Shown one piece after another: positions 14,268 to 44,165 of a stretch of 64,000 nt of DNA (position 1 is its first letter; every line of letters starts with the position of its first letter). The position numbers and the translations under genes are program-made. The notes under the pieces were generated by a model. The model did not search any database. It was not told the DNA's origin and worked only from the letters and a program-made list of their open reading frames with translations. The stretch comes from a virus (Duplodnaviria > Heunggongvirae > Uroviricota > Caudoviricetes): IMG/VR virus record IMGVR_UViG_2713896798_000008. One strand, written 5' to 3'.

Positions 14268-14753
14268 CTAGTTAATACACTGAGTGCGGATATATTCCTG
14301 CGCCCCTTCCAGCTGCTTCTGCATCATCATCAACCGTTCTCTGAGGATGAAATAATCCCGTTCAGCGGTGTCTGCCAGTCGGGGGCCGGTTGCATTATCC
14401 ACGCCGGAGGTGCCGGTGGCTTCACGCACGGTACCGTGGCAGGTGGCGTTGATCCGCAGGCGCTTACGACCAGCGGCAACATCAGCACGCAGAGTTTCAT
14501 TTTCAGCTCTCGCATCGGCTAATTCCTTCGAGTATTTTGCATCGAGCGCAGCAACATCACGCTGACGCACCTGCATGTCAGTAATGGTGGCATTCGCCTG
14601 TTCCAGCTCTCTGGCTTTTTTATCGCGCTGCGCTTTGTAGGTGATGGCGTTATCGCGGTAATGATTAACAGCCCATAACAGACAGACGATGATGCAGATA
14701 ACCAGAGCGTAAATAATCGCGGTTACTCTTCTCACTGATCTATCCCCCAACAA
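14268..14753 (-). CDS. Rz: Spanin inner-membrane subunit (Rz)
   Basis: 161-aa ORF, N-terminal TM segment, coiled-coil body, embedded Rz1 in alternate frame. Confidence 0.8.
14330..14515 (-). CDS. Rz1: Spanin outer-membrane lipoprotein subunit (Rz1), embedded in Rz
   Basis: 61-aa ORF with lipobox LVVSAC and proline-rich body, entirely inside Rz. Confidence 0.75.
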
Positions 14754-15265: not shown

Positions 15266-15307
15266 GGATATTTATCAGGATTTATCGGCAACAGATAACG
15301 AGCCAGC

Positions 15308-15868
15308 TTATATACGTCCTTTAAGATAAGTCAGTCCTGGATGAAACCAGTAAGCCGGCACTTTTTTAAAGGGCGGGTTGTCAAACTCACGAAGAAGAGC
15401 CTCCCGCACAACTGCATCCTTGTCAGCACCACTGGCCAGCGCTTCAATCTCAGCAGCTATCTGCAGATATCCCATGCAACGACCAATGCACTTCATCAGC
15501 CCCTGCTTTTTATTGTTCTTCAGGTAATCAATGGCAAATTCAATGAGCTCCTCACTATGCTGGTGCGATGGCGGTGTTACTTTCCCATTTTCTGAGATGG
15601 TTATTTTCCCAGCATCACCGGATACAACAAAGGATGGCCGGTTACACTCCCATTCCAGCTCACTGAAATTATCATTATGAATACTGAAACACTCTGAGAG
15701 ATTTCTGCTCATCACTTTCCGACAATAATCGTCAAACGCAGCAAACTGCTCATCGCGGCGTTTTTTTTCATCTTCAGAAGGCATCAGCGTCGACAGTTTT
15801 TTATTCAGTTCAGCAATTTCATTTTCCAGACGACTGAAGCGCTGATTCATTTCTTCATGGTTCATCAC
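15308..15868 (-). CDS. Hypothetical 186-aa protein inserted between holin and endolysin
   Basis: Intact ORF abutting holin stop; N-terminal coiled coil (NQRFSRLENEIAELNKKLSTL); no family recognised. Confidence 0.5.
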   Translation of the reverse strand: MMNHEEMNQRFSRLENEIAELNKKLSTLMPSEDEKKRRDEQFAAFDDYCRKVMSRNLSECFSIHNDNFSELEWECNRPSFVVSGDAGKITISENGKVTPPSHQHSEELIEFAIDYLKNNKKQGLMKCIGRCMGYLQIAAEIEALASGADKDAVVREALLREFDNPPFKKVPAYWFHPGLTYLKGRI

Positions 15869-16075
15869 CTAATCTCCCCGGGCAGCCTTGCGACGGTCCT
15901 CTTTAATTTTGAAATACAGGTTAGTCAGATACGTCAGCAGGCCAAACAGCAGACTCCCCAGCACACCTATCGCCACCCACTGGGACGGAGAGACTTTGTC
16001 CAGCAGCTGCAGTAACCAGTATCCCGTCCCCACCGCTGACGTGGTGTATGACACACCTGTTGTGATTTTTTCCAT
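15869..16075 (-). CDS. S: Pinholin (phage 21 S-type class II holin)
   Basis: 68-aa [26 protein letters not shown]...[15 protein letters not shown], two TM segments, S21-like. Confidence 0.85.
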
Positions 16076-16521
16076 CCGATGTATGTCTCCGTCACCGCCG
16101 ACAGAAAATGAAAGTAAAGAAAAACAAAAAAACCGCCAGTGTCACCCACTGACGGCCAACTCCGGGAGCCGTGATTATGGCATTCAGGCTCTGCTAAAAA
16201 TGCCAGATAACATTCCGGCCCCCCCCTAGTTCAGGTTATAAATGACACAATATCTTGACAACATCCGTCACTGTCTGTCAGAAAATATACCGCCAGGCAT
16301 AAGTATCATGTGAAATCCAACTATCCTTTTGAGCCAGCACCTCTCCACCGAAAGTCAGTGCTGGCTGTTTTTTTCCTTAATAAAGCATCTGTAACTGAAA
16401 CAATCCGCATATTGATAATATATTGACAGGCATCATTGCTGTCTGTGAAAAATAAGTCTCTACAAACATATAAGGCCTTTTAGCCAGCGTCTTCTTTCAG
16501 GTCAGCCGCTGGCTTTTTTTA

Positions 16522-18423
16522 TTATGCTGCCGGTGCATTTATCTCCAGCACCAGACTTTCTATCTCAACGCCATACGCTGCATTTTTTGTAACATCCGTC
16601 AGCGTCAGCGCATTCAGCCCCAGTGTCAGACTGTCTTTTATGACCTGGAATGCCGGGCCAGCCACTCCATTCAGTTTCGGAGTAACCGTGGCACTGCCGG
16701 CGGTGAACACCAGCTCCAGCGTCTGCCAGTCGTTACCGTAATCGCCGAACTCCCCCAGCTTCGTGTTTCCGGCTTTCCTGTGATGCATCAGATTCACTCT
16801 GCCGTCAGTGGTCTGAGTGAAGTACGACATCAGGAACGGATTACCGGTACCCGTCATCGCCACACCATCAGGAACGGGAGCATCCGTATACAGATAAATC
16901 CCCAGCCCGAACTGATTGTTGGTCAGTGCGCCTGACAGGCGGAACTTACAGGTCAGTCTGCCGCCCTGTGTCAGCAGGGTAATTGCGTCATCCACCGGAT
17001 GCGTCAGGGACCAGGTTTTATTGCTCTGCTTGGTGATCTTAAATACACCATCTGACAACTGAATTCCGCCATCCTTAATGCTCCAGCCCTGCGCAGCAGC
17101 CTCTCCGGCTGCCGGCAGCAGGGAGATTGTGCGAACGGACGTATCTGCAGACGGACCCGATGGCGTGTTGCCGCCGGGCGAGGGTTTGATTTCCGGTGCC
17201 TTACCACTGATGAAGGCTGAGGTGCGCCCGGCTGCGTTCAGAATAGCGGTTGCCATACGATCCGGAATAATGCTCCTGCGCGCCCATGAACTGAAATGTG
17301 TCGGGCGGTTTGATGATACCTGGTTTCCATTCGTTCTCGATGCCGCACCGTAATATCCTGATGCCGGAATATCCGGATCTTCTGCCGGCGCGTTAGTGGC
17401 GGTATTGACGCCGTTACCGTCTGTCATGAAGGGCACAAAATAAACGCCCTCACTCTCCCTGTTTTTATACCCGCCGTACACGGTGTCGTACTGGGTAGCG
17501 TATGTATTTTTCCAGTAATACGTCGTGTCACCACAAATCCACGGCACATCTGCAGCACTGCCACCATGGCACTGCGCGTTAAACACGGAGAGGTCAGCAC
17601 GAAACTGTGTCAGCATGGCTGTAAACAGCGCAGGTTGCTGTGCGTGGGTGGCGGCGCTCATGTCAAACTCTCCCTGCATCCAGCACACCGCCAGCAACAC
17701 ATTTTTCGGGTTCTTCTGTAATGCAGCTTTGGTGCGCGCAATCAGGTCCTGATATAACGGTTTACCCACACCCCAGCGCGCCGAATCCTGGCTGGCCCCC
17801 GTGTCCGCACTGAATGTCCCCTCCGCGCCCTGGGTAAATGCCGAACCACCACGACAGCATGGTACCAGCAGGATCCCCGCGTTATTCGGGATATACGGGA
17901 GCAGTTTTTTGGCAATATGTAACCCCTGGCCGACACAGCCGTACTGCCCTTTGCTCAGGTCTGCCTTCGGATGATTCAGCGTACTCATATCCTGCACATC
18001 ATGCAGGCAGTGGTCGGCCGGAATAATATCGTTATATCTGCAGGCAGCCCCACCCGGCGTCACTGTACTGCGGCGCGCCAGCTGCTTAATGCGCGGGTCC
18101 GGACGGTCATATGTCTCCGGCAGCGGAAGGCCTTCACCATATGCCATGCCGTTTGACTGCCCCGCCAGAACCACAACAAAGTAATACTCCGGGTCTCTGG
18201 TGGCGCTGATTACTGTGCCTTCTCCATCCGACGGCTTCACCACAACAGGTGTGCTCACATCACCTTCTGCGACAATCGCCTGAATAAGTGCTGCGCCATC
18301 ATCCGTATACGAAGAAAACGGCCCGCCGTATGGCTGCCATCCTTCACGAATTTTTTGAGCAAGCGCATCCGCAAGGTCTGACGGCGACGCCGCCCTGACC
18401 ACGTCATAGTGTTTAAATGCCAT
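16522..18423 (-). CDS. Prophage sialate O-acetylesterase (NanS-p-like, SASA domain)
   Basis: 633-aa ORF with GQSNG esterase motif; position between tRNAs and lysis genes as in EHEC lambdoid prophages. Confidence 0.75.
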   Translation of the reverse strand: MAFKHYDVVRAASPSDLADALAQKIREGWQPYGGPFSSYTDDGAALIQAIVAEGDVSTPVVVKPSDGEGTVISATRDPEYYFVVVLAGQSNGMAYGEGLPLPETYDRPDPRIKQLARRSTVTPGGAACRYNDIIPADHCLHDVQDMSTLNHPKADLSKGQYGCVGQGLHIAKKLLPYIPNNAGILLVPCCRGGSAFTQGAEGTFSADTGASQDSARWGVGKPLYQDLIARTKAALQKNPKNVLLAVCWMQGEFDMSAATHAQQPALFTAMLTQFRADLSVFNAQCHGGSAADVPWICGDTTYYWKNTYATQYDTVYGGYKNRESEGVYFVPFMTDGNGVNTATNAPAEDPDIPASGYYGAASRTNGNQVSSNRPTHFSSWARRSIIPDRMATAILNAAGRTSAFISGKAPEIKPSPGGNTPSGPSADTSVRTISLLPAAGEAAAQGWSIKDGGIQLSDGVFKITKQSNKTWSLTHPVDDAITLLTQGGRLTCKFRLSGALTNNQFGLGIYLYTDAPVPDGVAMTGTGNPFLMSYFTQTTDGRVNLMHHRKAGNTKLGEFGDYGNDWQTLELVFTAGSATVTPKLNGVAGPAFQVIKDSLTLGLNALTLTDVTKNAAYGVEIESLVLEINAPAA

Positions 18424-18953: not shown

Positions 18954-19030
18954 TGGCGCGTTGTACTGGATTCGAACCAGTGACCGATTGCTTAGAAGGC
19001 AATTGCTCTGTCCGGCTGAGCTAACAACGC
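18954..19030 (-). tRNA. tRNA-Arg (anticodon UCU)
   Basis: Reverse complement folds as cloverleaf: GCGTTGT acceptor, anticodon loop CTTCTAA, T-loop GGTTCGAATCC, 3' GCCA. Confidence 0.85.
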
Positions 19031-19110
19031 AGAATACCGATAATGGACCGCCACCGGGGACTCCGAATCTCGCACAGGGTGACGTTCTTTCCTGATGAGC
19101 TAGTGGCGGT

Positions 19111-19186
19111 TGGTGGCCCTTGCTGGATTTGAACCAGCGACCTGGCGATTATGAGTCACTCGCTCTCACCACTGAGCTAAAGGGCC
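19111..19186 (-). tRNA. tRNA with CAU anticodon (Ile2/Met type, ileZ-like)
   Basis: Reverse complement GGCCCTTTAGCTCAGTGG...CTCATAA...GGTTCAAATCC...CCACCA; resembles E. coli ileX. Confidence 0.8.
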
Positions 19187-43853: not shown

Positions 43854-43857
<4 letters not shown>

Positions 43858-44165
43858 AGATATTTATGATGAGGACGCTCGTGCTTATTGGCAGGATTTT
43901 CAATCTTAAAGGAGTACTGATGCTGCAGATAAGACTCAACTTTTTCTGACAATTTTTCTGCTACTTCCAGGAAGACTTGCCGGACGCTCCTTCTGGCTGC
44001 TGCCTCATAAAACTCCAGCGCAGCTCCTTCAACACGGTCCATGGCGACATCCAGGTCAAAAATTTCACCGTCAAAGCGTTCTTTGTCCTGTAAGGCTACA
44101 GTTACCGTAACTTTATTCTCAAAATTACGGACTCCTTTCACAACCAGTTCATAGTCTTGAGTCAT
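43854..44165 (-). CDS. ydfR: YdfR-like protein between holin and endolysin
   Basis: 103-aa ORF at Qin ydfR position. Confidence 0.65.

Follow-up and report, generated by a model that had tools for sequence, protein, structure and literature searches.

The 186-codon open reading frame (ORF) lying between the holin and lysozyme genes of prophage A is a genuine, conserved protein-coding gene of the lambdoid prophage late operon. Its product is the short form of the modular YdfR/PHROG 1085 family, made up of a leucine zipper, a helical linker and a C-terminal domain of about 115 residues (C-domain), and this short form arose through intragenic recombination and not through recent decay. As judged from sequence, what fills the slot between holin and endolysin is essentially one gene family in differing module combinations and not free cargo, and the 186-aa protein is probably not a core lysis component. 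Positions are those of the window, the whole 64,000-nucleotide stretch of viral DNA that was analysed, in which two prophages are referred to as A and B.

The additional gene in the lysis cassette of prophage A

An earlier note on this DNA had described an intact 186-aa ORF wedged between the holin and endolysin genes, and the layout in Table 1 bears this out. The ORF lies on the minus strand, ends with a TAA codon (15308-15310) and begins with a GTG that is immediately abutted by the TAG stop of the holin gene (15869-15871). A GGAG sequence within the end of the holin gene is placed 5 nt from this GTG and 8 nt from the alternative ATG; together with the abutting stop codon, this layout fits translational coupling of the ORF to the holin gene. 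The 185-aa product of the ATG start is identical in sequence to RefSeq WP_001015164.1, labelled 'hypothetical protein', and is carried by E. coli SCPM-O-B-9504 (RefSeq), in which the entire cassette DNA is 100% identical to the window. The holin itself also falls into PHROG holin families and bears the RefSeq label 'class II holin family protein'. The lysozyme gene lies downstream, separated from the ORF by 42 nt, and the Gly/Ala-rich N-terminus of its product is, in our own reading of the sequence, presumably a SAR-type signal. The 42-nt spacer (15266-15307, minus strand) shows no obvious Shine-Dalgarno sequence before the lysozyme start, and its last ~23 nt are conserved among relatives regardless of what the slot contains.

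Table 1. Positions of the features discussed, in window coordinates; protein residues follow the ATG numbering.
Feature	Position	Strand	Basis
186-codon gene	15308..15868	-	ORF map; GTG 15868 = 186 aa, ATG 15865 = 185 aa
Phage-21-type class II holin (pinholin family), 68 aa	15869..16075	-	PF04971 'Bacteriophage P21 holin S', E 7e-33
GGAG Shine-Dalgarno, within holin gene end	15874..15877	-	direct sequence reading
Lysozyme (R), 177 aa	14732..15265	-	PF00959 E 1e-23; PHROG 7 endolysin
Rz spanin (RefSeq start 14735)	14268..14753	-	PF03245 E 1e-50
Rz1 lipoprotein, embedded in Rz	14330-14515	-	ORF map and RefSeq
Terminator-like hairpin with T-run, upstream of holin	16131..16157	-	consensus scan only
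N-terminal leucine zipper, residues 3-27	15785..15859	-	heptad reading and AlphaFold2
Second helix, residues 31-60, with conserved EKKRRDEQFAAF..C.K segment	15686..15775	-	alignment and AlphaFold2
Recombination crossover inside the ORF, in conserved EKKRRDEQFAAF segment	15722..15770	-	pairwise blastn
Conserved C-terminal domain, residues 70-185	15311..15658	-	alignments, dN/dS, AlphaFold2
Prophage B ydfR, 103 aa, DUF1327 head module alone	43854..44165	-	PF07041 E 1e-53, full length

The placement supports co-expression of the gene with the lysis genes, which the earlier note had proposed. Neither the ORF nor the stretch immediately ahead of it holds a promoter-like site by consensus scan and, as judged from sequence alone, the gene appears to belong to the Q-dependent late transcript. 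If the terminator-like hairpin found about 55 nt from the holin start is real, expression of the cassette would need read-through or antiterminated transcription. In phage 21, a dual-start codon gives the antiholin isoform S21-71. The window holin has a single start codon, the in-frame residues before MEKIT being GDGDIHR, and may be made without an antiholin isoform, while a dual start (typically MYQ-MEK) is present in 54 of 74 near-identical holins of viral contigs and the prophage B holin has a phage 21-like MKSMDK start.

Upstream of the lysis cassette lies an esterase-like gene (16522-18423, minus strand) encoding a 633-aa protein with DUF1737, SASA and DUF6645 domains, which is similar to the NanS-p-like sialate O-acetylesterases that Stx-type prophages carry, a typical late-operon cargo. 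Between this gene and a methyltransferase-like ORF, two tRNAs are found (18954-19186, minus strand), a tRNA-Arg (tct) and one with a CAT anticodon; the otherwise identical RefSeq strain has an IS3 element and an annotated tRNA-Ile in this region.

The earlier note did not recognise the protein family. This remains true for Pfam and NCBIfam, where the 186-aa protein has no match beyond weak coiled-coil noise, but the family is catalogued as PHROG 1085 and named 'YdfR family protein' in RefSeq. The match to PHROG 1085 (E 5e-112, 375 bits) aligns protein residues 2-186 with profile positions 117-296 of 296, and all six PHROG matches of the protein are labelled 'unknown function'. PF07041 (DUF1327) gave no match to the 186-aa protein at E up to 1, so the head domain is absent. 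When all 67 family members were scanned against Pfam, only weak coiled-coil noise was obtained apart from DUF1327 in the long forms.

These long relatives include gp05 of the Stx2-converting phage 86 (YP_794052.1, 268 aa), Stx2_95_290 (329 aa) and E. coli proteins of 287-296 aa. They are annotated 'YdfR family', occupy the same slot directly behind the same P21-type holin, and are composed of a DUF1327 head (PF07041, E ~1e-45), a linker, a coiled coil and the C-domain shared with the window protein. Their C-domains are 84-95% identical to that of the window protein (tblastn), with part of the DNA up to 98% identical, and most of them also share the coiled coil and the EKKRRDEQFAAF segment; however, the window protein is without the DUF1327 head and linker and carries instead a 32-residue zipper N-terminus of a different lineage.

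The earlier note had placed a ydfR-like gene at the holin-lysozyme junction of prophage B, and this gene is indeed found between its own holin and lysozyme genes (PF07041 score of 179.9 bits). Its description as a different gene did not hold, since DUF1327 is fused to the coiled coil and C-domain in the long forms; prophage A thus carries the tail modules and prophage B the head of what elsewhere is one gene. The same applies to YdfR of E. coli K-12 (Qin prophage, P76160; PF07041), the only family member with experimental data: it also comes from a holin-lysozyme junction and corresponds to the head module of the composite family, yet it has zero sequence overlap with the 186-aa protein, the two being separate modules. 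A functional link between the modules is further supported by a split and permuted arrangement in a viral contig (L058:1612-2511), where, in contrast to the fused long forms, DUF1327 is encoded by a gene of its own (75 aa; 34.7 bits, above the Pfam cut-off) behind a 213-aa zipper and C-domain gene.

One long form is flagged by RefSeq as an incomplete 'YdfR family' pseudogene, in O103:H2 12009 (L002:1931-2920, NC_013353.1, ECO103_RS32475). When translated, this gene is an uninterrupted 329-aa ORF equivalent to Stx2_95_290, and the flag is probably an artefact, caused by annotation with a head-only model.

The N-terminal coiled coil mentioned in the earlier note was confirmed both by heptad spacing, where M6, F10, L13, I17, L20, L24 and L27 follow a perfect 4-3 pattern over three heptads, and by AlphaFold2, which predicts a helix over residues 3-27 with block-mean pLDDT of 84-88. 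The C-domain is characterised by H103 and by the motifs GRCMG(Y/L)LQ.AAEIE and DNPPFK..P..W..PG..YLK.R, all present in the window protein, and these columns are invariant or nearly so in the alignment of 67 E. coli and Salmonella sequences. With these 67 sequences AlphaFold2 gave a model of mean pLDDT 65 (block means of 62-88 for residues 71-160), while E. coli sequences only gave a poor model with a pLDDT of 51. The predicted topology comprises two long N-terminal helices, three short strands (79-97) and helices at residues 101-117, 123-144 and 151-160; the C-terminal tail is modelled with low confidence and yet is highly conserved. We take the stretch 'DFDNPPF' to resemble the SSB C-terminal tail (DFDDDIPF), although here the motif is internal and not C-terminal. 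The maximum 19-residue Kyte-Doolittle hydropathy of the 186-aa protein is 0.95 and its pI is 5.8, and no transmembrane segment, signal sequence or lipobox was found by hydropathy scan and inspection of the N-terminus. Since there is no transmembrane segment and the N-terminus is not hydrophobic, the protein should be soluble and cytoplasmic.

Contents of the holin-lysozyme junction and origin of the short form

To define what occupies the slot, 80 viral contigs with a holin at least 93% identical to that of the window were compared, of which 74 were informative. At 30 of the 74 loci holin and lysozyme are adjacent and the slot is empty, a proportion that, like the others given here, is rough because the sample is redundant. 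The remaining junctions hold the head only (20 loci), head, zipper and C-domain (11 loci), zipper and C-domain as in the window (6 loci), head and zipper (3 loci), the zipper only (1 locus), or only an opposite-strand ORF (3 loci). Family modules are thus present in 41 of the 44 occupied junctions, and the opposite-strand ORF stands alone in 3 of 44. The earlier note had seen here a variable cargo slot, and the junction does vary between phages, but its contents are the modules of one family. Its statement that the two lysis genes are normally adjacent is roughly true for deposited phages and fails for the prophage-derived contigs, where 44 of 74 junctions are occupied. Among the 427 deposited phage genomes with this holin type, about 100-120 carry a family module; in the whole deposited-phage collection the DUF1327 head is found in 100 records and some part of the 186-aa protein in 20. 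At every E. coli locus examined the family gene directly follows a P21-type (PF04971) holin.

We also considered that the gene might substitute for a missing dual-start antiholin, and rejected this as no correlation was observed, the dual start being present in 21 of the 30 loci with adjacent genes versus 33 of the 44 with an occupied slot.

Directly after the slot gene, many E. coli and Salmonella relatives have an ORF of 86-116 aa on the opposite strand, which is absent from the window and sometimes overlaps the 3' end of the slot gene; examples on our contigs, all on the minus strand, are L003:2858-3172, L058:2516-2866, L005:2155-2415 and L015:4849-5145. Neither Pfam nor PADLOC gave a match to this ORF.

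The recombinant origin of the window gene is observed as a change of closest relative within the ORF (blastn). On the 5' side, the holin gene and ORF nt 1-144 are 96.6% identical to the short-form lineage of Stx2_12E129, while on the 3' side, from ORF nt 96 to the lysozyme start, identity is 98.4% to O103:H2 12009 and 94.2% to Stx2_95, both of the long-form lineage. The short form has a start of its own at the holin stop, MNHEEMNQR..., that is kept in diverged short-form sub-lineages of 185, 208, 213, 216 and 217 aa, and its zipper is only about half identical to the long-form coiled coil, which indicates an established variant and not a fresh deletion.

Conservation, selection and relatives in Salmonella

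The gene is conserved. The exact 185-aa protein is present on 944 public contigs, and the DNA of the ORF is matched in 811 of 5426 complete E. coli genomes, with at least 80% of the length covered in 278 of these. Among the 18 C-domain-bearing loci of the viral-contig sample, 15 keep an intact single ORF that begins at the holin stop, and the other 3 have interrupted copies, which points to some decay in prophages. When the window gene was compared with six homologues (Nei-Gojobori), the dN/dS of the C-domain was 0.21-0.43 at dS values of up to 1.3, with one exception, a value of 0.09 against the near-identical Stx2_95 copy; for the N-terminal part dN/dS was 0.4-0.7. These ratios indicate that the C-domain is under purifying selection.

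The distribution of the family is narrow. An exhaustive search of 1.84 billion representative proteins with a C-domain profile gave 23 hits, the distant genuine ones being prophage proteins of Salmonella enterica, and a search of 185,579 species-representative genomes gave three loci, in Escherichia sp., Shigella flexneri and E. coli. From the protein search we rejected three large hits that matched in several stretches (P0129, P0135 and P0136), as they are HEAT, SRCR and LRR repeat proteins in which one helix was matched repeatedly. By these sequence searches, no prophages other than those of Escherichia/Shigella and Salmonella carry the family.

The Salmonella enterica homologues are prophage 'hypothetical proteins' (P0145 and P0181, for example) that share the C-domain motifs with the window protein but are only 28-43% identical to it and have extra inserted modules and C-terminal extensions. 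They are also encoded in the late operon and usually consist of a DUF1327-like head, a coiled coil and the C-domain; the similarity of this head to DUF1327 is remote (hhalign probability of 87%, E 4e-6). Unlike the E. coli copies at the holin-lysozyme junction, the Salmonella gene is placed between Q and the holin gene, upstream of the latter, and adjoins holins of two different Pfam families. From this order, the common site of the family is the early late operon beside the lysis genes, and the holin-endolysin junction itself is not essential. A HicA/HicB toxin-antitoxin pair immediately precedes the family gene on two Salmonella enterica contigs (L015 and L017).

Possible roles of the short form

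Searches for a function returned little. No lysis-category PHROG or Pfam family was found to be similar to the 186-aa protein, a PDB sequence search with the family profile had a best E of 0.059, which is not meaningful, and Foldseek with the AlphaFold2 model found nothing in PDB and nothing in BFVD at E up to 0.001; neither profile, PDB nor fold searches thus returned a characterised lysis-accessory homologue. In PADLOC-DB no family was matched at E up to 1 by the window protein, a long form, a Salmonella form or the opposite-strand neighbour. That the protein is probably not a core part of lysis follows from the 30 near-identical cassettes with an empty slot and from the position of the Salmonella gene upstream of the holin.

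A literature search for DUF1327, ydfR, essQ and the RefSeq accession found only a paper on interaction with RNase E and incidental mentions. In that work, residues 1-72 of K-12 YdfR bound the N-terminal catalytic half of RNase E, and RNase G more weakly, in two-hybrid assays; Strep-tagged YdfR co-purified RNase E 1-598 together with DNase-resistant nucleic acid, with RNA co-purifying, and overexpression of ydfR was non-toxic and changed the transcriptome little (PMC13232886).

Taking into consideration that domain fusion and gene neighbourhood tie the C-domain to DUF1327, we tentatively hypothesize that the window protein is a dispensable cytoplasmic accessory, expressed late, and that it shares a pathway with the DUF1327 module, namely RNase E or RNA turnover; we consider this a possible rather than a probable reading. 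Translation coupled to the pinholin gene would restrict the protein to late lytic growth, under Q antitermination. It would probably oligomerise through its zipper, while the conserved C-domain and tail would probably bind a host cytoplasmic target, and it would probably act in the pathway of the DUF1327 module, which is its fusion partner or gene neighbour in relatives. The family as a whole would then tune RNA turnover, of the host or of the phage, or a different late process in the cytoplasm, with the window version supplying the C-domain activity only and a DUF1327-only protein being available in the same cell from prophage B. The weakness of this RNA-pathway reading is that the window protein is without DUF1327, so that the reported RNase E binding is not directly applicable to it. 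The small transcriptome change seen on ydfR overexpression, the failure of the searches to give the C-domain a fold or sequence relative of known function, the moderate confidence of the structure model and the interrupted copies also count against it.

An extended version, which we regard as unlikely, makes the C-domain a new host-targeting effector fold, specific to lambdoid phages of Escherichia and Salmonella, within a late three-module takeover factor that would couple RNase E or RNA turnover, or a different cytoplasmic process, to lysis timing. The short forms would here be free-standing effector subunits and could associate, by way of the zipper or in another manner, with paralogues that bear the head and come from co-resident prophages.

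By analogy with known cytoplasmic lysis regulators, the protein might instead control lysis timing, binding the charged cytoplasmic C-terminus of the pinholin, or the endolysin precursor, and thereby delaying or sharpening triggering; this, too, seems improbable. T4 RIII and P1 LydB are cytoplasmic lysis regulators, and P1 lydB follows its holin gene. The window gene likewise lies immediately behind its holin gene and is apparently translationally coupled to it, the constant P21-type holin in front of the E. coli copies would suit such a partnership, and the window holin is without the dual-start codon. However, the likeness to RIII, LydB and S21-71 is that of a small product made alongside the holin: no sequence or profile similarity to them was found, nor any match to a lysis-category family, and the window gene is dispensable in near-identical cassettes. 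Slot occupancy does not follow the dual start, and near-identical holins have an adjacent lysozyme gene not only in the census loci with an empty slot but also in most deposited phages. The Salmonella homologues, upstream of the holin and beside holins of two Pfam families, also argue against this role, as does the head-only YdfR, which shares the slot and whose reported partner is RNase E and not a lysis protein (PMC13232886).

A further view sees the gene as conflict cargo. Carried in the cargo-rich stretch from Q to the lysis genes, it would be expressed late and serve exclusion, anti-defence or a benefit to the population, its modules being shuffled by an arms race. Several observations would suit this view: the very narrow range described above, the extreme mosaicism, the relaxed constraint on the N-terminal part, the NanS-p-like esterase neighbour as a typical cargo gene and the HicAB pair beside Salmonella copies. 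Against it, there is no PADLOC match, purifying selection on the C-domain is of an ordinary kind, and with no promoter of its own and a terminator-like hairpin upstream the gene is unlikely to be expressed in the lysogen; late expression is also an odd timing for anti-defence, and we doubt that this view is correct. That the ORF is a functionless remnant of a long YdfR-family gene, left open by chance after loss of its head, is very unlikely: the head module is missing, 114-aa head-only stubs and frameshifted copies occur in other prophages, and the host prophage is partly decayed (an IS66 element truncates the portal gene in the identical RefSeq strain), but the short form keeps its own conserved start at the holin stop in several diverged sub-lineages, its C-domain dN/dS values are mostly low, head-less forms are also found among the most distant relatives, and its 5' end is ~50% diverged from the long-form coiled coil, so no recent deletion took place.

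The gene was already in databases and its family catalogued; the present analysis adds that ydfR belongs together with the 'hypothetical' short and long forms, that the window copy is a recombinant, that the host range is narrow and that the results on a lysis role are negative. Annotation is corrected on two points: the short forms carry no family label, and a pseudogene flag stands on at least one long form that is intact. Recognition of ydfR and of the 'hypothetical proteins' of 185-329 aa as modules of one gene provides a phage context for the RNase E/YdfR finding, and the head-only, head and zipper, zipper and C-domain, and full-length forms make up a natural module-deletion set. Many lambdoid prophages of E. 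coli, Shiga-toxin prophages among them, carry the family in their late operon, where its products are probably abundant alongside the lysis proteins. If it affects neither RNA decay nor lysis timing, it is one more dispensable prophage accessory gene; if it affects either of them, it would have a bearing on toxin release by Stx phages.
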